Below are positions 8,500 to 30,859 of a stretch of 32,415 nt of DNA, piece by piece. Within the stretch, counting starts at the first letter, position 1. Each line of letters starts with the position of its first letter. Source of the DNA: Phoronis australis. Lineage: Eukaryota; Animalia; Phoronida. The DNA is taken from the NCBI GenBank assembly GCA_002633005.1, contig NMRA01000614.1:1-32415 (forward strand), in the 5' to 3' direction. The position numbers and the translations under genes are program-made. The notes beneath the pieces are model-generated. The model saw nothing but the letters and a program-made list of their open reading frames with translations, was not told the DNA's origin and did no database searches.

Positions 8500-9217
8500 A
8501 CGGATAGTCAGTGAGTGGGTATACTTTGTATGTTTGAGCCCGAGTATAATGAGGCAGAGTAAGCACAAGCACAACTGTCCCACTTGCCCCAGTGTCCCGC
8601 GACACACTCCCACTGGATGGTGACATGAGCACCCAAACTGCTTACATCCCGCAGTATGACTCCCTCGCATCACCCCTAGCTCCAATACTTTAGACAAGTC
8701 CACAATAAACTTATCAAAGTTTGGCTCACCGATCTGTTCGTTAGACGACGAACTTTCCTCTTCACTGAGTGTCGAACTGGGCTTGTATTCACTCCCACAA
8801 CTCAACATCGCTGCGGGGCTGCTTACAGGCTCTGTGCTAGAGACAACCGCAAGCTCTGTACGTTCGGAGGAAAAGGTGACAGTAGATGAAGTGCCTCCAG
8901 TCACTGTAGTGGCCACAGCTCGCGAGGCTTCTCGCTTCAAAAATGCACTTCTCGGTGGTGGCGACGGAGCACTGCCGGGAATCACGGTATGGCACCCTTC
9001 TTCAGGCGTTGTTTCGCAGGGACCTTCATCAATTCAGCGTATATCTCTCTCGTAATCTGACGGCAGAAAATGCTTGCCCTCCACTGCGTTCTTCACACGA
9101 ACGAGCCAAGTACGGCAAAGTGTGTCATCCTTCGGAAAGCGATGCAAAGTCTGGTATTTCCAAAGCGCGCGTGAGACGATAATGAGTACATCCCGGTACG
9201 CAGCAACAGTGTGGCAT
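8500..9217 (-). mobile_element. Degenerate THAP-domain DNA transposase (Kolobok-like architecture), 5' part
   Basis: MPHCCCVPGCT / LHRFPKDDTLCRTW / HFLPSDYERD / ELMKVPAKQRLKKGAIP form a THAP domain across frameshifts. Then an S/T-rich linker, KFIVDLSKVLEL and GAHVTIQWECVAGHWGKWDS, which resemble THAP-associated transposases. Confidence 0.7.
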
Positions 9218-9447
9218 GTTGTCTGACTCGTAAACAAAAGCAAACGACGACCGAACTTATCACAACCGAGGTAGAACTATGACTGACTCGACAGCTCTCA
9301 CAGTCAGACTATGTGAAAAGAAATTGGCTCGAAATTCTTGCCTCCAAAACGTCATTTCCGGAGTACAGGACGAGTAATTGATTGAAATTACGAAAAGCTG
9401 TAATTAAGTGAAAAATATGTCTGGGATAACCAACAAACATTTTTTTG

Positions 9448-10672
9448 CTAAAAATGATATGTAAAAAGGTTGCCTTCACCTTTAATAGCTTCAGCTGTAC
9501 TATCGCTCGCGCCCACACGTTGAGCGTTTGTAGCATCTGTTAGTCTACCTCTCACGTTCACCAGTTTCTTGTTTGCAGGGTCTGTTAGTCTATTGCTCGT
9601 GTCCAGCATTTTCTCACCTACAACATCTACTGGCTGATCGTTCGCTTCCACCAGTTTTTTATTTGCAGTATCTGATGGCCTATGGAAATTGCACACCAGT
9701 CTACTATTTGTAACACCCACAGGTCTATCGCTGATGTCTACCATTTTGTCGCCTGGTTTGTCGCTCGTACCGACTACTTTGACGTTTGCTGTACTTGCTG
9801 GTTCACCTCTATTGCCCAACACTTTCTCTTTTGTAGCACTTGCTGGTCTACTCCTCATTTTGTCATCTGGTTTGTCGTTCGTACCGACTTGTTTGTCGTT
9901 TGCTGCACTTGCTGGTTTATCTCTGGTGGCCAACACTTTCTCTTGTGTAGCACCTGCTTGTCTAGCACTCATGTCCACCATTTTTTCATCTGGTTTGTCG
10001 CTCGTACCGACTAGTTTATCGTTCGCTGCACTTGCTGGTTTATCTCTATTGGGCAACAGTTTGTCTTTTGTATCACCAGCTTGTATAGCACTCACGTCCA
10101 CCATTTTTTCATCTGTTTTGTCGCTTGTACCCACTAGTTTCTCGTTTGCTGCACTAGCTGTTTTTTTCTCTATTGGCCAACAGTTTCTCTTTTGTAGCAC
10201 CTGATGGTTTATCTCTCATGTCCACCATTTTTTCATCTTGTTTGTCGCACGTACCGGCTAATTTGTTTTTTGCTAAATTTTCTGGTTTATCTGTATTCAC
10301 CAACAATTTCTTTTTTCTAGCATGTGCTGATCGTTTACAGGTCGTGTTCAGCAGTTCCACGCTCTTAAAATCTGCTAGCCTGTCGGACGTGTACACTAGT
10401 TTTTGGTTCGCAGCATCTGTTGGCTTATCACTCGGGCTTACCAGATTGTCATTTGCAGCATATACATGTACTAGTCTGTCGTTCGTGTCAACAAATGCCC
10501 CGTTTCCTTGATGTCCGCTCATTGCCACCACTTTCTTCGTTGTGGCATCTATTGGTGTTTCGCTCTTGACCATCAGTTTATGATGTACAGTATCTGAAGC
10601 TGATCTGAAAATTAACTCGCTTTGTCTGATTTGTTGAAAACGAGAATTAAAATGAAATAATGTGTCGTTCAA
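9448..10672 (-). pseudogene. Low-complexity repeat ORF (41-aa/123-bp higher-order unit) split by a +1 frameshift; large exon or pseudo-exon
   Basis: ORFs 10154-10672 and 9448-10200 share KLVGTSDKP-type units. Removing one base from the T7 run at 10161-10167 fuses them (NREKTASAAN). Confidence 0.55.
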
Positions 10673-12096
10673 CTTCGCGTACCAGAAGTAAACTTAAAGA
10701 GTCATCAAACCCGTACTTTCTCACAAAGACATTTTTTTCATTTAAGTCAATTGATCAATCGCAAGCTCTGCCCCCTTGTTAAAAGTTACCGACGTCATGT
10801 TGTTTTTCGGGTAAAATGGCGGCTTGGAAACTTAGACAAATGTGTGTCAAGAATGTTGCATTCTAATTGGTCAGCTAAGACGTCAGTCAAAATCCAGACC
10901 AGTTGGCCTCAAATAGTACCTTAGTCAAGTTGGAGGCGATTTCGTGGTTTCGAGAGAACTGTCTGACAGTTCGCTTTTTCTTCAGATCGAGCTTATCAAA
11001 TTTTTGTTCCTGTTATGCGTAATGGTCTGATATAACGTGCCCGCATTTAGAGAACCAGTTTTCTCCACTGAATAACGGACACCAAACTGGTTCTCAAAAT
11101 ATGGGCAGTCGTATCGTCATATTCGACTATTGCCCATGCAGTGACCTGAAAGGTTATGAGCTTAATATCTAAGGAATAACAAACCCCGGGCTCTTCCTGA
11201 GAGATAATGTATGAGTAAGGAACAAGGTAAGTCTAATCTTGCAACGCGGAGCGTTGAAATGTGCCCACGACTGCAGCGCAAACAGTGTGCTTCTAGGGGG
11301 GTGTGTTTAATACATGCTTGCACACAGGGGAGCTCGGGGGGCTCGTCTGGGACAATCAATCGTATTTTTACTGAAAGTTACATGAAATAGGTTGTTTTCT
11401 CCTTTAAGACCTGATACAGAAGAGGAGTTTCATTGTTAACTCGATGACAATTTTAGGCAAAAGCTTAACTTCACAACTGGAAAATTGAACATATTCTGAT
11501 TTATTGGGGTTCGTGGAATGTTTGCACGATTTTTTCCTAAAAGCAATGGTTGACTTATTTCATGCGTAATGTACATTTTACATGTACTAGTGGCTAAAAC
11601 CACTGCAGTCTAGTGTACAGGTGGCCAAGTATGTATTATTAAAAATGGCATGCGCCAAAACCACTTTTGGTTGATTGAAAATCTCCAAGTTGTTATTACA
11701 AGAAGGTGAGGGATGAGAGGCCTGTGCACCGCCATTATCTTCATCGTTGGTGTCGACTGGGGGTATCGAAGTTGACAATGGCCGATGAACCAAACTGGGA
11801 GTATCATGATATTTGCGATGATCACCGCGGGGGCACAGTTTGATGATGAAATGAAATACATGTATGTCTCACGGACTTCGCCTTATGATAATCCTTGCCC
11901 TCGAGCTCACAACGCATCTGTTGTCACATTTGACCTGGCAGTCAGTGTTACTCTTGACACACTATCACACGAACACAAAGATTTGTAGTCGACTTTAGTT
12001 AGTGATAAGGCTTCTACAGGGCAACGAACTGAAGGTTATGCGTTTAAAAGAGTGCACACTTGCTATCTTAGAGTCATACCGATAGTGGCTTGGATC

Positions 12097-12355
12097 ATGA
12101 AGTTCGCCAAAAATAGTTTTATCGTTGCTAATATTGTGTTGGTTATTGTAGGAATATTTTTCTATTACCATAGTGAAGTGCCCTGTTTGCTGACCCGATG
12201 CACTTCTTCAACAGTTGCATGCGTTTTGAACGAAGACTGCCGCAACGCTGTCATATGTCAAGGGAGTTGCGGAAGTAATATGAATTGCACCTACGCGTGC
12301 CTCGCAAGTTACGAGAACGACATATTTAAAAACTTTGTGCAGTGTGGCATCTCAG
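12097..12355 (+). CDS. VDE-like: Violaxanthin de-epoxidase-like protein, exon 1 (signal/anchor + Cys-rich domain)
   Basis: atcATG start, hydrophobic FIVANIVLVIVGIFFYY, then CLLTRC..C..C..C..C..C..C..YEN..C with VDE Cys spacing. cag|gtaat donor, phase 1. Confidence 0.92.
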
Positions 12356-13116
12356 GTAATGAAACAATGATAACTAATCTGTGTCAGTGTATGGCCTAAA
12401 AGACCCGTACAAGAACTTGGCCCAGTTTTAGACCTGTCGATAAAGATAGTAAAATACCATATACCTTGGTTCCCTTATTTTATATGATAGGATTTTCACG
12501 GCCTTTCTCGTCTCTAGGAGTGATGCGGGCTATATCTAATGTATGGAAATACACTACAGGTTTGTAGGCGTTCACTTCTCGTGAGCAACCTAGAGCATTC
12601 CTTATCCTGGGGCGGATCTAGGGGACTGAGTGAAGGTACACGCGTCGTCAGTTGCCAAGGGGGCGGGGGCACCGAAGCGTCGTCCGATCAACCAAAACAA
12701 GAAGAGGACAAAGACGTGGGAAGGTTTTCCTTAGGATAAATGCACCCCAGCCCCCCACCAAAGACACCATAACACCGCGGTTGTATTTTTCCTGTTTGTT
12801 CCTAATAGACCTCTTCTGTGGGTTTTGAAATTGTTTTATTGGTCATTGTGAGCGATCACCGTCGTCCTCTGAGATACCTCTAACCATAGACCTGTACTTT
12901 AACTTTTTGGTGATGTACCTTTTCTAACAAACGTAGCTTATTGGTTTTAGCGTATGGAAAATATGAGAATCCCGGAAAATATGATCTCTATATCTGATAA
13001 TTTCTGCTACGCAACTGGCCCCTCTGCTGACTTTGATCGACTGGCACGGTGTGTATATGTTTATGAAGTATGCATAACTTGACGTCAAATCAATTTAAGT
13101 GCATTGTGTTTTTTAG

Positions 13117-13376
13117 ATGAACAGTGTATCATTCCGGAAGTCGATCCGAATCAGCCTGAATGCAATGTTCCAGCTGTGGATCGATTAAGTAAAGAATTTG
13201 CACTTAGCAAGCTCGTTGGTAAATGGTACATTGTGTATGGGTTAAATCCAATCTATGATTGCTTTAACGGCCAGTGGAGTAAATACGAAGAAAAAGACAA
13301 TGAAACGCTTTTTCTCACGGAGTTTTATGACGTCATCGCACTCAATGGAAGTACGAGGACAATGCGCGTAAGAGAG
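13117..13376 (+). CDS. VDE-like: Violaxanthin de-epoxidase-like protein, exon 2 (start of lipocalin domain)
   Basis: ttttttag acceptor, phase-compatible (GIS|DEQC). Encodes GKWYIVYGLNPIYDCFNGQ (cf. plant VDE GKWYITSGLNPTFDAFDCQ). gag|gtaaat donor, phase 0. Confidence 0.93.
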
Positions 13377-14642
13377 GTAAATTGACGTTCTGAATTTAAA
13401 GCGGCAAATTCCGTCTTACAGCAGAAAAACCTTTTCGGTGAAAATGGTCCCAAATTGTTCCCTATTCAAAGTGGAGAGGATATTATGACTTCGAAAAAAT
13501 TGACACTACGTTATTGATTGACACCATGCTCTACAAAATGACGCCATTTTATACGATTAGTCTCAGCCAATAATGAACGCTCATTTCTTTGAAAACCCTG
13601 GACATCACTTCTTGTTTGAGTAAAGAACAAGTTTAGATTAACTTTATCGCAGTAAGTGCTCTTAATCAAAATTTTGCTTCTTGAAGGTACCGCCGATTGA
13701 CAGGCCCTTTAAGTGTTTACAAAAATTATTAATTAAAGAATTTGACGACTTTGTGGCTCAAACTATTAATCAACGAATTGTCACATTTAAAGCGACATGC
13801 ATTGTACCGGGTTGTATCGAAATACCAAAAATGATCAACTTTAAACTACAATAAAACAAACTTCCGTCAAAATTCCAGGATGCAATCACAATTTATTGAT
13901 TACACTTCGGTCCTTCCCAGCACCGTCGTGAGCTGAAAATCACAATTACAGATTCAAAAAATCAAAGCTGTTGTCGAATGGAATGCAATATGTGGAATAG
14001 ACATCACCTTATTTACGGAGATGTTGCCTGTCAAATCCTCATTGACAGTTATGACAATTAACATGTCGCAAGCTAGGTGGCGAACTATTTTGATGTTTAC
14101 GGAGTAAAGTCGTTTTTACCTGCATTTTCACTAATTGCAGACTTCAATGCAATATCCGTTGAGAGTTCAAGTATAGTACGCTGAATGTAGTTAGGCAGAT
14201 AAATCCAAGTTTCGGCAAAATCGTCCAATCTGTCACAAAAGCACAACTAGCCTGCATACTCATCATCAGATGATTTTGAAATTCCTTGATGGTTTTACAT
14301 CATGTCTTGATCATTCACTTAAAAGTAACTTCATGTGTTAAGTGTTCAAAAATCACCAACCCTTCAGATGAATTTCGTGGTACATATACATGTATACTGA
14401 ACCCTTACATTCCAAATAATTAAACCACAAAAATATGACGTCAACTTTTTCCATACGCTACATAACATAAAATGATCTCCGTCCCTAGATTAGTCAAGGT
14501 GTTGCTAAGGAGAAAATAGTATCCAAATGCTATCAATGTTGATAGGGTAATGGTCATCTAAAAGCGGCATTAAATTCGTGTCTTTCATATCGATTTTTTT
14601 CTAGTTTTTATGCGTTTTTTATGACTAAGTTCTTTTTTTCAG

Positions 14643-14803
14643 GATTTAGGTTATGTTGATGCTTCGGTGTCCAAATCGGTGCTCTATCTAAGATCCAACG
14701 AGCCAGGAGTGTATAGGGACGACGAGTTCCGAATCTTGGCGGCCGATCCCACGTGGTCACGCTATATCTTGGTCTATTACTGTGGAATGTGCGCTAACAT
14801 AAG
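14643..14803 (+). CDS. VDE-like: Violaxanthin de-epoxidase-like protein, exon 3
   Basis: tttttttcag acceptor. Encodes DLGYVDASVSKSVLYLRSNEPGVYRDDEFRILAADPTWSRYILVYYCGMCANI (cf. VLYNHDNEYLHYQDDWYIL..YIFVYYRG). ag|gtgaga donor, phase 2. Not in the ORF track. Confidence 0.9.
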
Positions 14804-14876
14804 GTGAGAATTCAATGGAAGATCACTGTAACTAAACGGCTGATCAACAGGTTTGATTATGGCAAGGAGAAGCGGG

Positions 14877-15440
14877 ACACTGGATGGGAAGGACTGATAT
14901 CCCGGTGCGAAGGACTGGTCTCCCGGTGGGAAGGACTGGTCTCCCGGTGGGAAAGACTGATGTCCCGTAGGAAGGACTGATGTTCCGGTGCATGGAAAGA
15001 CTGATATGTAGATGGGAAGGGCTGATATTCCGGAGAGAAGAACTGATATGTGGATAGGAAGGGCTAAGTTCCCGGTGGGAAGGACTGATATCCCGATGGG
15101 AAGGACTGATATCCCTTTGAGAAGGACTGATATCCCTTTGAGAAGGACTGATATCCCTTTTGGAAGTACCGATATCCCTTTGGGAAGGACTGATATCCCT
15201 TTGAGTAGGTCTGATATCCCTTTGAGAAGGACTGATATCCCTTTGGGAAGGACTGATATCCCTTTGGGAAAGACTGATATCCCTTTGGGAAGGACTGATA
15301 TCCCTTTGAGAAGGACTGATATCCCTTTGAGAAGGACTGATATCCCTTTGAGAAGGACTGATATCCCTTTGGGAAGGACTGATGTCCCGGGGGAAGGACT
15401 AATGTCATGGTGGGAAAGACGGACATATAAAGGGAAGGAT
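14877..15440. repeat. 21-bp minisatellite (gggaaggactgatatcccttt-type) in VDE-like intron 3
   Basis: About 25 units. Homogeneous at ~15100-15380, degenerate at both edges. Confidence 0.95.
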
Positions 15441-16201
15441 GAACAGGAAGTGAGAAGGAAGATCCAAAAAAATGTGTATTACTTGGAATTTATTTTACAT
15501 GAAAATTAAAAAAAAACGGTCATCCTTCCCAATTTTAGTATCGTCGTTTTTCCCGTCCAAAGTCCCGCGGCGACTTTTCAACTGCCTGACCAAGCTTGAA
15601 GTACATTTCGTCATGTTTGAGATCCTATCTCATCAGGGTAGTCAGTTGTGATAATAATGCACATTGATTGTCACAACTGCGTGCGATTCAAATCAGCCTG
15701 TCTGATTTATAGTGTATTGCCTGCATAACTAAAACAAATGCCCCACTTTTAAAAACTTTGGTAAGTCTGGGGCTATTTTGACCAGTGAAACACCATGATT
15801 CCTGGCCTACACTAGTTAATCACTAGTCATAAAAGCTTTTGGTGAAAAGTATCACACTAAAATGGAAAATGCTTCAGTACTTACCACCCACGGCTTGTCG
15901 GAGAATGAAACAAGAGTTACCCAAAGGCGCAATAGCTTTCAAGTTGCATATTTTATCTCCGCATGATTTCCAACACCATGTTGATCTCCACGAGGGGTAT
16001 TACAATGTGACGTCGAGTTAAGCTATTGAGCATGCGTTTCCGATAATGCATTTCTGCTATTTTGCTGCTGTGTCGTCTGCAACCTGACCAATCTAGCTGC
16101 TACGGGTTCACTAAGTAGAGAAGTTCATGACTGGATTCTCGCAGCAAGGTCGCTAATACTGTAAAAGATGAACATTGTAGGTGTTAGTGTATGTACGTGT
16201 A

Positions 16202-16710
16202 CAGGGGAGGATCCAGGATTTTGAGTTAGGGAATGCCGGGATTCGCACCCTCAAATTGGCAAATGGAATATGGGAGAATTTAAGGGGGCCATGACCCCCT
16301 TGACCCCCCCCCCCCCNNNNNNNNNNNNNNNNNNNNNNNNNNNNNNNNNNNNNNNNNNNNNNNNNNNNNNNNNNNNNNNNNNNNNNNNNNNNNNNNNNNN
16401 NNNNNNNNNNNNNNNNNNNNNNNNNNNNNNNNNNNNNNNNNNNNNNNNNNNNNNNNNNNNNNNNNNNNNNNNNNNNNNNNNNNNNNNNNNNNNNNNNNNN
16501 NNNNNNNNNNNNNNNNNNNNNNNNNNNNNNNNNCCCCCCCCCCCCCCTTAGGGACAAGATCAAGAATTAAAATTTCGCCAGAAAAATGAAATCAGCTACT
16601 AAAAACCACAAAAAATCCCCCTCCCGACCTTCCTTCCGCTCGGCGCTACGCGCCTCGGATTCACTCGAACCCTAAACCCCCCGCTTACCGAAAATGTAGA
16701 TCTGCCACTG
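16202..16710 (+). mobile_element. GC-rich-TIR MITE (CAGGGGCGGATCC-type) spanning the gap; may be two adjacent elements
   Basis: Begins caggggaggatccaggattttgagtta and ends agatctgccactg. The left part is closely similar to 30291-30448. Confidence 0.65.
16317..16533. other. Assembly gap (217 N) flanked by poly-C runs
   Basis: Run of N in the sequence. Confidence 1.
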
Positions 16711-17450
16711 CATAGCATGATCATACGTTATAGTAGCGGCGTAAACAGCCAGGCCCCGTCTATAACTCGATAGACACTGCACCAATTTACGCGTTACGGT
16801 TACATGTATATAGGATCCTAGAAAAATTCCAATCTTGGCCAAATTTGAAACATTACATCTCAGAAATGGCCACACGGATTCACATGAAACTTTCAGGTAA
16901 ATGTTTTTTATACACTGTTTTCGAACGCGCTGTAAGGGATGGTTTTAAAGTGTTCCACTTTTACATGAGGGACTTTCAAAAATAGGGCTTATGTGATTTT
17001 GATGAATTGCTTTTAAGTTGCATAAACGAAAACGAAACTATAATTTAGAAAACTGTTTGAGATTTTATCTTGAACATTTATTTTATAGGAAATTTGTTCA
17101 TGTACCACCTTTCTTTGTCACTAAATTTTACTAAAAAGCATGAAATTGTGACACAATTACTGCAGTCTTGTCCATCATCCTACATACCTTATATAATAAA
17201 TGGAAGTGATATCATATTGGTGTTCAGTAACAATTTACGAACAACATTAACGTGCGTGCGCTCACTGGCGGATCTAGGATCCCGCAAGAGTAGAGGGGAT
17301 GGTCCAACCACAGTTTCGAAGGAATTCGCGTACGCCTTAAAAACGCCATGCCAACGGCTTTATTTTTTGTCGAAGGGGCCTGCTGCTTCCCTCTTTACCC
17401 CCCCCCCATGTCGTGTCATTTCTTTCACCAAGCATTTCTGTTTTTAATAG

Positions 17451-17580
17451 GTACGAAGGAGCAATAGTCTATTCGCGTGACCCCGTGCTGAGAGAAGAGA
17501 GTCTCCCCGATCTGAAAGATGACATGAAACGACATGGATGGACATTTGATCAATTTTGCCCTGTACTACATTTCCCATAG
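17451..17580 (+). CDS. VDE-like: Violaxanthin de-epoxidase-like protein, exon 4 (terminal)
   Basis: tttttaatag acceptor, phase-compatible (AG|G = R). Encodes YEGAIVYSRDPVLREESLPDLKDDMKRHGWTFDQFCPVLHFP* (cf. [35 protein letters not shown]). Spliced CDS is 810 nt. Confidence 0.9.
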
Positions 17581-17723
17581 TGCTTGGTAACAAATGGCGC
17601 TGCGAGGGAACGTGTAGTCATTTAGTTAACTAGGCAATGTCAACTTCTAACAACAATATATGTGGTATCTAAAGCTGAACTCGGGTTATCAGCTTTTTAT
17701 TAATCCGTGTGTTCTTTTTCCAC

Positions 17724-17729
17724 AATAAA
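17724..17729 (+). terminator. Candidate polyadenylation signal of the VDE-like gene
   Basis: AATAAA ~145 nt after the stop codon, followed by T/GT-rich sequence. Confidence 0.5.
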
Positions 17730-18697
17730 GTTACAAGCAGGTGTCAACGCATATCTCATTTTGTGTTTTTATTCTTCGTGCTTTTCTTTTCATAATAGTA
17801 GTGTTGAGCTGAAAACAAGTGAAACTTTATCGTTTCGAACAAGACAAATCAAGCTTCAATCTGTTACTGTTATAAAATTCAATTTGTTCCCCAGTTTTTG
17901 CTCACGTGTTTCGCATTCACGCGTATGCGCCTAGTTCCGCACAGGTGATAGATCAGAGCATATACGGTGACAGTAAACAGGTTTTACTTACATCTGTTTG
18001 TTCCCAGAACTGATGTGGACTTCGTCATTGGCAAATTGCATTAAAATGTACCATTACCACGTGCTTACAAAAAGGTACTTCAGATGAAGTTTCAGAAACG
18101 TGCTCCTTCATGAAAATAATGTTAGTTTTAATGCATTTTATTTTTGTTTGTCCTGTAGAAGCAAATCTACAAGAAGGCTTAGTGTTAAGGAGACATATCA
18201 GCGACAATGCGAACGACAAACATGCACGCATGTGAATAGAAACACAAGAATTTCCTTTTGAGATAACACTTCAACAATTGCTTACTACAGATTACTGTCA
18301 CAGACATTACGTCGATATTTTTAATATGTTTACTTTTGCTTTTCGAAAATAATGGTAGGCCAATGACACAACCTCCAGGAACCATGTTACTACATAAACA
18401 CACTGGATGGCAAAATGTTTCAGTTAAGCAAGATGTCAAAAACACAGTACACTGCAGGTAAAAAAATATAAATCCCAATGGCTTGTGTAGCAAAACTCGA
18501 GCAAGCCCGATATTACTGGAAATGGCCAATTTGTCTCGCACAACAATCCAACGCTCGATTTCGTTTCAAAATGGCTATTTAAAAGAACCTACTCCTTCAA
18601 TGTGCTGCAGTTCGTTGACTCTTCTTCTCGCAAACACTCAAGAAATTTACCCTGGCTTCTTTACACCGGACGTGACACCACCGTCAGCGCATTCAGT

Positions 18698-21700: not shown

Positions 21701-21852
21701 ACCAGCCCAATCTTGTTTTTCGGTCATTCCACTTGGGTTTTTCAACCCTGGGAGTTATTTCATGCGCTGTACTTTTTAATATGGAACTAGCTAACAGGTA
21801 TTTATATTTGATAATTTAATATTGCGCGGGTCAGTACCATAATAATTGCGTT

Positions 21853-22242
21853 ATGCTTGGATTAAAATGCTTCGTTGCTCTTGTTATGATTTGCCGTGTG
21901 AAAACGACCTCGTCTCAGTTGCCTTTTTATGGAATTTCGGTGAATCTATGTGATGTGAACTTTACATCACGAGTGTACCAAGCCGAGTTCACCCCCCTCT
22001 CGAGTTCGTACCGGCCTCCTTTCTACAAGACGGAGCCGGCAAGAAGCGACATGGAGTGTCTGGTGATTTGCAAGCGAGATTCTAGCGTCTGTGTGTCAGC
22101 CTACTGGGATCCAAACATGCAGACGTGCCAACTAACTAACGCCACTCTTCATTCACAAACGGAATACAGTTCCCACCAGCTAACTAGATCTACCATGACA
22201 AACCTCCGAGCAAAGGAAATGGTTACATTTAAGAAAAACATT
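21853..22242 (+). CDS. CTHRC1-like: Secreted PAN/apple + CTHRC1-C domain protein, exon 1 (signal peptide + PAN-like domain)
   Basis: MLGLKCFVALVMIC signal-like start. SDMECLVICKRDSSVCVSAYW..TCQL fits the PAN/apple CxxxC..CxS..CxL pattern. att|gtaagt donor, phase 0. Confidence 0.82.
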
Positions 22243-23748
22243 GTAAGTACAGTTGATTTCACAATAAACTGAACAACGACAAAATTTGATGAAGTTTCCG
22301 TGCACAAAATCGAAACTAAATATCTAATCAATTTTTACTAGAATACGTTTAAATTCTGGCTAAATCTCGACCAAAGCTCACCAGGTATTGCTTCAGTGTT
22401 GTAACTCACTATTGCAACAGTGAAACTTTATTGGCATGAAATATAAAATAGCCGTTAGCCGGCAGCATTGGGATGTTATCCCATAGACGTGAAGCATTAT
22501 GGGTAAATATAGTTGAAACATCGATGACGCTGGAACTGTGGTACGTGTGACAATAGGTTAACAAAGTATACGTTCAAACAGCAAGTCATAATGATCACGC
22601 CATATGGTAATGAATAATTGAAATAATGCATTCACTTAGAATGTCCATCAGTTTTGGCAATTGGTGACACACTCTTATCAAGCATCTGGTTATCAAAATT
22701 CAGAGTTTGGAGATGATAAGGCACTGGGGTGGGTCTAAACTGTATGCACAATTTTTTTTTTTTTTTCGTTCTAATTTCGTGTGAACTCAAAATAAGCGTC
22801 TAGTAGTTTGTGCTCAAGTATATTATGGTTTATACATATGAATTTATAGTCAAAGTTCCCACGAGTTCAGACTCGAAGTTTTAGCCTTAGACTGCCATTG
22901 AACGAGAAAAACAGACTGACTGCCTTCTTCAGAGTACTTCTCTGACAATGAAACATAAGTTAAACTGTTCCAGGTATTTTACGGTTCGTTAGTAAAGATT
23001 TTTGAATTTCTTTTGATGTCAAAGCATTTTTGTTTTTAGTTTCGAATTTCAGAAAAGCGATCTGCAACTGTTCTTCACCTCGTCGATTTTTGTCACACAC
23101 GGCAAAGCACGTGTCCTTATTAGGTATGCCAAAACATAGACGTAGCACAATTCCCTTGTGTGTAAATGTGACCTTTGACCTTTGATGTAAACGAAACAAT
23201 GGCGATTTATCAGAAGTAGCTAGTCCGACTTCTTTGAGGGGCAGTGAATACTCGAAACTGTATTGGAATGAACGAGTTTATATTTCGTCTGAGTTTCAAA
23301 AATAGCAAATCTGGTAATTCTTTTCTAGAAATTCTTGCAAATTCAAAGTTAGCATTCCCAAGAAGTACATGTAAATACCCCACGATACATGTATGTTTAA
23401 AAGGTATTTTACAAGTTTTCGCGTTTTATGCATTTTTAATACCGGGAAATCAAATGCAAACTCGGATTAGGCAGTTATTCACGCAATCAATAATTTACTT
23501 GAGCATCGAATGATAGACATCAATACCGAGTACGCAGAAAAGTAGAATTTTATAGAAAATCTCATTTTCACTGATTTCGAGTTCCCCTTTGAGTACAAAG
23601 ATTAGACCCAAGGTTCTGGTGAATTTTTGTCAGTAATTTACAACTTTTAAATTAATCATCTTATGTTATAGGTATAGTGCTGTACATGTATTTACATATA
23701 TGAGGTCGTTACATTGCATTAATGTGTGAGTTCATTTTTGCTTTATAG

Positions 23749-30546: not shown

Positions 30547-30745
30547 ACTGTCACGTACAAGAAGCAGTATAATTTAACGGGCCTCAGAGTGCAATTCCGT
30601 GGATGTCTTAGAGGTGCACGCAATGCTGCAAAAGCGTGTTCTAGGTGGTACTTTACATTCAATGACAAAGAGTGCCAGACACCGGGAACCATAGAGGCGG
30701 TTTGGTACACGGAAGTGAAAGTTGACTATCATAGGAACGGACGTG
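30547..30745 (+). CDS. CTHRC1-like: PAN/CTHRC1-like gene, exon 4 (CTHRC1 C-terminal domain core); gene 3'-incomplete in the window
   Basis: ttctag acceptor and g|gtaag donor. Encodes TVTYKKQYNLTGLRVQFRGCLR..ACSRWYFTFNDKECQTPGTIEAVWY..DYHR (cf. [46 protein letters not shown]..NIHR). Confidence 0.92.
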
Positions 30746-30859
30746 GTAAGAAAGGACCTCAGCAACACTCTAGTCCAGCTTCCACAACAAAACCCCAGCC
30801 AATGGTGTACTTACCTTCAGTATGTGTGGAATAGCGGACTTTTCACATTTGGGCTCTAT

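Follow-up and report, generated by a model that had tools for sequence, protein, structure and literature searches.

A spliced and transcribed violaxanthin de-epoxidase-family gene in the genome of Phoronis australis

The analysed window, 32,415 nucleotides of Phoronis australis contig NMRA01000614.1, carries a four-exon gene of the violaxanthin de-epoxidase (VDE) family (Pfam PF07137). Its features are listed below, with pocket positions numbered as in VDE.

12097..12355, plus strand: exon 1, with the start codon, a leader of hydrophobic residues (about 8-22), all but one of the ten Cys in the Cys-rich domain and a phase-1 donor; PF07137 positions 2-63, E 5.8e-9
12356..13116, plus strand: intron 1, 761 nt, GT-AG; 10, 2 and 0 junction reads in three RNA runs and a Logan contig of a fourth run
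13117..13376, plus strand: exon 2, with the tenth Cys, lipocalin motif I, residues equivalent to D114 and Q119, Ser in place of H121 and Gly in place of C118; PF07137 positions 67-134, E 2.2e-11
13377..14642, plus strand: intron 2, 1266 nt, GT-AG; 6, 7 and 2 junction reads in the three RNA runs
14643..14803, plus strand: exon 3, with the D177 equivalent (D200), Phe at W179 and the Y198 equivalent (Y219) followed by Cys; PF07137 positions 155-196, E 0.15
14804..17450, plus strand: intron 3, 2647 nt, GT-AG; 11, 5 and 4 junction reads in the three RNA runs and a Logan contig of the fourth run
17451..17580, plus strand: coding part of exon 4, with lipocalin motif III (Y214 equivalent), the C-terminal helix and the stop, without a Glu-rich tail; PF07137 positions 203-239, E 2.9e-6
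17581..17729, plus strand: 3' UTR, with AATAAA at 17724-17729; RNA depth in the bin 17548-17771, a fourth-run contig reaching 17719 and no depth past 17772

The joined exons (810 nt) encoded 269 amino acids and a stop without internal stop codons, and the start codon was the first in-frame ATG downstream of the stop preceding 11989. The introns had GT donors and AG acceptors in phases 1, 0 and 2. This structure, proposed in the initial annotation, was reproduced on joining the exons, and its three junctions were found in stranded RNA reads. The reads originated from three runs chosen by species label, about 18-19% of each being read; the depth was modest and the tissues were unlabelled. The first mate of the junction reads was always on the minus strand and the cuts fell exactly at the listed splice sites, while the Logan contigs of the fourth run contained junctions 1 and 3. 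The gene is spliced and transcribed, all three introns being removed in the stranded reads. A pseudogene was ruled out by the stop-free reading frame and the spliced RNA. Among the 40 listed of 115 window-wide differences in the RNA reads, 15 were coding; seven of these were silent and none affected a Cys or a pocket residue. The AATAAA at 17724-17729 is likely the polyadenylation signal. A 21-nt tandem array (14885-15400) lay in intron 3, as did a gap of 217 N and pieces resembling repeats. Elsewhere in the window, a CTHRC1_C exon was detected at 30547 (E 6e-13), and the neighbouring PAN and CTHRC1_C open reading frames had no spliced reads in the RNA runs. Besides the CTHRC1_C exon, the length of the GT-AG introns and the tree position of the protein point to an animal genome.

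When the exons were searched singly, the only Pfam match of each was PF07137, in successive profile order. Together they spanned positions 2-239 of the 242 in the profile; three of the four exceeded the 25.7-bit cut-off singly and exon 3 was below it. Since all four exons matched only this family and in successive order, the match is not due to chance. No exon matched the ordinary lipocalin profiles PF00061 and PF08212 at E values up to 1. The first ten Cys were located at residues 30, 35, 42, 48, 54, 58, 64, 68, 83 and 90, giving the spacing x4-x6-x5-x5-x3-x5-x3-x14-x6. The positions given for Arabidopsis VDE in a legend of PMC13181403 (9, 14, 21, 27, 33, 37, 46, 50, 65 and 72) agree with the earlier observation that plant VDE differs in a single loop, x8 instead of x5. 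The P. australis protein is a member of the VDE family, which comprises VDE, VDE-like (VDL) and VDE-related (VDR) proteins, as had been suggested from the sequence.

The sole PDB match of exon 2 was VDE (3CQN). The predicted model of the closest relative, P0018, had a pLDDT of 91.7 and eight strands, and its top match was also 3CQN (E 1e-11). The Atlas model of a clam relative gave a TM score of 0.81 against full VDE models, and its structure matches were VDE with E 7.6e-14, sandercyanin with 0.01 and ApoD with 0.18. The barrel is thus predicted to be most like that of VDE, the models being those of P0018 and the clam relative rather than of the P. australis protein. An ordinary animal lipocalin was ruled out by the exon matches to PF07137 only, the Cys-rich domain and the far weaker matches to sandercyanin and ApoD.

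Annotated relatives were found in six bivalve genera, abalone, chiton, amphioxus, acorn worm and a chytrid, including XP_034326102.1 of oyster, XP_046346709.2 of abalone, CAH1247036.1 of amphioxus and XP_077994384.1 of acorn worm. A profile search from alignment A1 resulted in 12 matches, four of them new proteins. In one Atlas cluster the commonest phylum was Porifera, the phylum being known for 9 of 95. Phylogenetic analysis, proposed earlier as a check, placed the P. australis protein in a clade of its own within the family, together with the mollusc, amphioxus and chytrid relatives (support 100/96); the value was 89/91 (unstarred) after the acorn-worm fragment, which joined this clade, was added and six long rows were dropped. 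The protein was nested with these relatives in all four trees. AU tests rejected its grouping with VDE proper (p 7.8e-6), with the bacterial clade (p 1e-4) and with the clade that we presume from its motif to be VDL (p 0.018).

The initial annotation had offered two origins, an algal gene acquired by this lineage or a patchily retained ancient member. The latter fits the tree, whereas the former disagrees with the animal and chytrid clade and the AU tests. More generally, a recent, independent transfer from an alga, a protist or a bacterium might have brought the gene into the P. australis lineage, the introns being gained later. The identity to the animal relatives was just 28-42% (38% to the nearest row, P0018), and the bivalve genomic reading frames, judged from where gene-caller frames leave homology, imply introns elsewhere than the three of P. 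australis; such a mismatch is unusual for simple orthologues. Nevertheless, a recent transfer is highly unlikely given the nested position, the AU tests and the GC content of the coding sequence, 0.44 vs 0.35-0.44 in the introns. It is also opposed by word-based scans of GTDB and IMG/VR with exon 2, the bivalve alignment and the P0037 group, which are sensitive to close relatives only and gave no real relative. Loci L001 and L002 of the scans were rejected as chance matches inside unrelated reading frames, and no genomic loci of the bivalve relatives or P0037 were found in scans of metagenome contigs. Within animals, the gene very probably goes back by inheritance to the bilaterian ancestor or further; this could have been preceded by a far earlier transfer into the stem of the animals.

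In the VDE papers examined, the family is treated as photosynthetic. Coesel 2008 limited the fusion of Cys-rich and lipocalin domains to photosynthetic eukaryotes and set aside a single oyster EST as likely algal contamination; a clam genome paper lists the VDE family in one sentence. The words 'metazoa', 'mollus' and 'heterotroph' are absent from the 2026 VDE review. RefSeq already names the oyster and abalone proteins 'violaxanthin de-epoxidase, chloroplastic-like'. The presence of an intron-bearing, spliced copy in the genome and of relatives on contigs of 17-211 Mb in three other phyla does away with contamination as an explanation, and an algal contaminant was likewise ruled out for the P. 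australis gene by its position in the animal clade. The literature searches returned no characterised animal member, in line with the initial annotation; animal VDE-like genes may be listed in supplements. The novelty raised there is reduced by the RefSeq labels, the EST and the clam paper. The P. australis gene is not unique, and it is very unlikely to have come recently from an alga.

In the alignment mapped through 3CQN, the P. australis protein retained the equivalents of D114, Q119, the catalytic D177 and Y198, and Y214, and position 123 was aromatic. H121, W179 and C118 were replaced with Ser, Phe and Gly, respectively, and two extra Cys were present at positions 115 and 199. The protein ended a few residues past the last Cys of the barrel, with no Glu-rich C-terminal domain of about 100 amino acids; Glu accounted for 6% of its last 80 residues vs 12-20% in three VDE-proper rows. 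The residue at 177 is Asp and not Glu, as in VDE proper; together with the kept D114, Q119, Y198 and the aromatic residue at 123, this would suit genuine de-epoxidation with ascorbate in an acidic compartment of the animal, converting violaxanthin to zeaxanthin and diadinoxanthin to diatoxanthin. Such an activity is nonetheless quite improbable in view of the rejected grouping with VDE proper, the Glu or Ser at 177 of most animal relatives, and the missing H121, W179, C118 and Glu-rich tail.

The leader reached a hydropathy of 2.99 (15-residue window) and three N-glycosylation sequons were present. As judged from hydropathy only, the leader could also be an uncleaved anchor, and the 29-residue N-terminus is probably too short for a plastid presequence. 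Asp or Glu occupied position 177 in nine of the 11 animal rows (P. australis and 10 named ones), Y198 was retained in nine of the 10 that reach the position, and H121 was present in none. At 177, the oyster and Tegillarca rows had Ser and the chytrid had Thr; the position of W179 was variable and the chiton had His at 198. The Ser and Thr at 177 and the chiton His indicate that not all clade members are catalytic. The substitutions at 177, the variable W179 and the secreted-glycoprotein features would be compatible with a non-catalytic secreted carrier whose barrel, as in ApoD or crustacyanin, binds carotenoids or other lipids, the Cys-rich domain being structural; lipocalins are mostly carriers (PMC13181403). 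A carrier is considered somewhat unlikely, because the buried acid at 177 and Y198 are kept in most rows and such polar cavity residues are taken in the review as a sign of enzyme activity.

The protein belongs to a short VDE-family branch common to several marine invertebrate phyla, and we tentatively favour a secretory-pathway enzyme that may open or rearrange epoxides of dietary algal carotenoids. The hydrophobic leader and the sequons would send the protein to the ER and further to the gut lumen, lysosome or cell surface. The end ring of the xanthophyll would enter the barrel, where the oxygen of the epoxide could receive a proton from the Asp equivalent to D177, the role proposed for D177 of VDE. 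Without the Glu-rich tail and H121, the pH trigger of VDE, the enzyme would not be under the control of light-driven pH. Its chemistry would likely be a cofactor-free rearrangement or hydrolysis similar to that of VDL1, which is cofactor-free and works at pH 5-6 (PMC7056318). The step would be of the same kind as those turning fucoxanthin into the metabolites of bivalves and tunicates, which include an allene-to-acetylene change and epoxide cleavage (PMC6949322).

The substrate could instead be a non-carotenoid hydrophobic compound (another lipid epoxide, a sterol or a pigment catabolite), its conversion being the job of the family before plastid recruitment. This would agree with the bacterial members, from Spirochaetales and two proteobacterial MAGs, with those of the chytrid and a vampyrellid amoeba, with the short form in Micractinium, and with VDR, which has no known substrate according to the review. 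The same pocket residues also occur in bacterial lipoproteins, weakening the connection with algal pigments. A non-carotenoid substrate is nevertheless considered somewhat unlikely. The named animal hosts live by grazing or by filter or deposit feeding, and both heterotrophic microbes with members, the chytrid and the vampyrellid, attack algae. Such a substrate is also opposed by the characterised family members, which all act on xanthophylls, both characterised branches using carotenoid epoxides (PMC7056318 and the review).

The gene provides a concrete candidate enzyme for a conversion long known from shellfish and other invertebrates, that of algal epoxy-carotenoids; no enzyme was found in the literature searched for the animal steps to halocynthiaxanthin and mytiloxanthin. 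The question of the origin of VDE is also reopened. A rather doubtful but broader scenario is that the enzyme with Cys-rich and lipocalin domains predates the xanthophyll cycle. It would have been exported by heterotrophic cells feeding on algae, and plastid VDE and VDL would have been recruited from it. Marine invertebrates would then still use it to convert dietary fucoxanthin, peridinin or diadinoxanthin to animal-specific carotenoids such as these two.

Compared with Arabidopsis VDE (PDB 3CQN/3CQR, PF07137), the P. australis protein has the same ten-Cys spacing bar one loop, the lipocalin motifs and the D114, Q119, D177, Y198 and Y214 equivalents. It differs in lacking H121, W179, C118 and the Glu-rich tail, in its short hydrophobic leader, sequons and extra Cys at 115 and 199, and in its separate clade (AU p 7.8e-6). 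With VDL1 and VDL2 of chromalveolate algae it shares the Cys-rich and lipocalin domains, the Cys at 115 and the absence of the Glu-rich tail and H121, whereas it is much shorter, has Asp in place of the Glu of VDL at 177 and falls outside the clade presumed to be VDL (AU p 0.018). VDR of plants and algae belongs to the same Pfam family and is likewise without an assigned function; in contrast to VDR, the P. australis protein has no N-terminal extension of about 250 amino acids, PF07137 beginning at residue 28 vs 248 in a 529-aa Medicago protein that we take to be VDR, and its tree position is distant. The animal lipocalins of the ApoD and sandercyanin type have a similar eight-stranded barrel, but they lack the Cys-rich domain and match much more weakly than VDE. 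The invertebrate proteins named 'VDE, chloroplastic-like' are only 28-42% identical, and the P. australis protein and P0018 have Asp177 and are without one Cys pair; nevertheless, clade, length, leader and the Tyr-Tyr-Cys-Gly motif are common to all of them.

The window gene is a genuine member of the violaxanthin de-epoxidase family (VDE, Pfam PF07137). In an exon-by-exon Pfam search, each exon alone matched PF07137 and no other family, in agreement with the membership claimed in the initial annotation. The matches covered profile positions 2-63, 67-134, 155-196 and 203-239, that of exon 3 being weak (E 0.15). The ten-Cys spacing, described there as VDE-like with a single different loop, corresponded to the Arabidopsis numbering in PMC13181403, apart from one loop. 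The intact four-exon ORF was also borne out, with GT-AG ends, phases 1, 0 and 2, and 269 residues free of stops in the window sequence. In three stranded RNA runs sharing one species label, all three introns were spliced out at the predicted bases and every junction read was oriented as a plus-strand transcript, which confirmed the three junctions. The junction reads per intron across the three runs were 10/2/0, 6/7/2 and 11/5/4, determined from about one-fifth of each run. The RNA depth stopped close to AATAAA at 17724. Eight amino-acid differences between the reads and the assembly were listed; four of them, at 12101-12173, were located within residues 1-26 and were fixed in the reads. The other features of the window were as follows.

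29-319, + strand, LINE-like reverse transcriptase remnant (PF00078, E 1e-4)
9034-10693, - strand, long low-complexity ORFs over a 123-nt tandem repeat
9034-9273, - strand, weak THAP-like piece adjoining the repeat ORFs (E 0.007)
14885-15400, 21-nt tandem array of 24.5 copies within intron 3, several frames open
16317-16533, gap of 217 N
21820-22272, + strand, ORF of 150 aa, hydrophobic at its start and weakly matching the PAN domain (E 0.001)
30547-30834, + strand, exon-like ORF with the CTHRC1 C-terminal domain (PF25815, CTHRC1_C; E 6e-13)

The region 9034-10693 is possibly a THAP gene or a DNA transposon remnant. Spliced reads were looked for at the CTHRC1_C ORF in the RNA runs and none were seen, and most of the PAN ORF length was without read depth in these runs. 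The host is probably an animal, judging by the long introns, the CTHRC1_C exon and the phylogeny described below.

The exon 2 query matched a Mactra protein of 279 aa, encoded on a 42-Mb contig. Searched in turn, this protein retrieved proteins from Mercenaria, Dreissena and Sinanodonta as well as 640 cluster representatives with E values no higher than 0.001. The relatives were drawn from the best 150 of these 640, and 30 clusters were looked up (17 without a name, 2 labelled only 'hypothetical protein'). The animal clusters named among the 30 included oysters, Tegillarca, Haliotis, the chiton Liolophura, Branchiostoma and the acorn worm Glandiceps; the non-animal ones included Quaeritorhiza, Leptophrys, Euglena, Micractinium and Medicago. 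The gene is not unique among animals, and no characterised animal member was found. In the Atlas, Mollusca formed the majority of a 174-member cluster, and Porifera was the commonest known phylum of a 95-member cluster. Bacterial VDE-family proteins were located at L003:2431-3870, L004 and L005; one of the source MAGs belongs to the Spirochaetales and two are proteobacterial. P0079 was identical to an ORF of the Spirochaetales MAG. The start of the L003 protein resembled a lipoprotein. P0037, which has 264 aa and falls in the animal clade, was encoded by one complete ORF in metagenome contigs as long as 57 kb, and its gene is therefore likely intronless; a GTDB search gave no match. P0017 (chytrid Quaeritorhiza haematococci) and P0059 (vampyrellid Leptophrys vorax) were short secreted-type members. 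Both organisms are heterotrophs which attack algae.

For the phylogeny, 164 of 187 proteins spanned at least 190 profile residues; removal of 25 fragments and 22 near-duplicates left 117 rows, of which 68 were hand-picked for the slower LG+C20 model. The sampling was ranked by similarity to one clam protein and the root was one row. VDE proper was anchored by motifs common to 3CQN, the Arabidopsis VDE structure, and the VDE-like (VDL) and VDE-related (VDR) clades are those which we take to be such. In both the quick 117-row and the 68-row trees, the relative P0018 was the sister of the window protein (99/96). As the check proposed in the initial annotation showed, the two grouped with molluscs, Branchiostoma, the chytrid and a few further rows (100/96), apart from VDE proper, and the clade persisted with lower support (89/91) after Glandiceps and Tegillarca were added and six long rows removed. 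With rows chosen after the tree was seen, AU tests rejected placement of the pair within VDE proper (p 7.8e-6), the presumed VDL clade (p 0.018) and the bacterial clade (p 1e-4). The window protein belongs to none of VDE proper, VDL and VDR.

Of the two origins initially proposed, recent algal transfer is unlikely given this clade, while old animal presence stood: its occurrence in both protostomes and deuterostomes suggests an origin no later than the bilaterian ancestor. The chytrid member, on an 11.6-kb contig, hints at opisthokont-level age, and early transfer into the animal stem may have occurred. The branching order within the clade departed from the species tree. The bivalve genomic ORFs lost homology at two positions, neither a window intron site, which counts against simple orthology.

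The branch is present in databases, but no description of it was found in the literature. The oyster and abalone proteins are named 'violaxanthin de-epoxidase, chloroplastic-like' in RefSeq, so that the animal occurrence is already visible in annotations. Full-text searches of mostly non-subscription papers turned up no study of an animal member. Coesel 2008 (PMC2483416) reports a single oyster EST, describes it as the sole VDE sequence known outside photosynthetic eukaryotes and suspects algal contamination, a dismissal contradicted by the spliced window gene. The accessible text of the Manila clam genome paper (PMC5499747) has one sentence on a VDE gene family as an antioxidant candidate, and that of Girolomoni 2020 (PMC7539987) does not mention animal, metazoa or fungi.

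For VDE, D177 is named as the residue that donates a proton to the epoxide and H121 as the pH trigger; Y198, D114 and Q119 are assigned to ascorbate and W179 to carotenoid binding, the Glu-rich tail also being named (PMC13181403). An acid at 177 was present in 9 of 11 animal rows and Y198 in 9 of 10, and H121 in none of 11. The oyster and Tegillarca rows, in which residue 177 is Ser, would suit a passive carrier, a less likely role. The bacterial members would fit another lipid as the substrate, also unlikely; true de-epoxidation would be quite improbable. VDL1 rearranges a carotenoid epoxide on the VDE-family scaffold without a cofactor (PMC7056318), and in bivalves and tunicates the epoxide of dietary fucoxanthin is cleaved and the allene converted (PMC6949322). 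These reactions favour a putative role of the window protein in processing dietary epoxy-carotenoids, proposed tentatively, and the protein offers a direct assay.

The N-terminus of the window protein is a hydrophobic stretch and three sequons are present. In the model of the relative P0018 (pLDDT 91.7), the Cys domain was helical and the barrel had eight strands; 3CQN was the best structural match of this model. Together with the residues kept and lost, these features suggest that the putative enzyme would be exported or lysosomal, constitutive and acid-favoured. In comparison with VDE, the equivalents of D114, Q119, D177 (D200), Y198 (Y219) and Y214 are retained, whereas Phe replaces W179, Ser H121 and Gly C118, and the Glu-rich tail is absent; with the short forms, the window protein shares two extra Cys, at the 115 and 199 positions.
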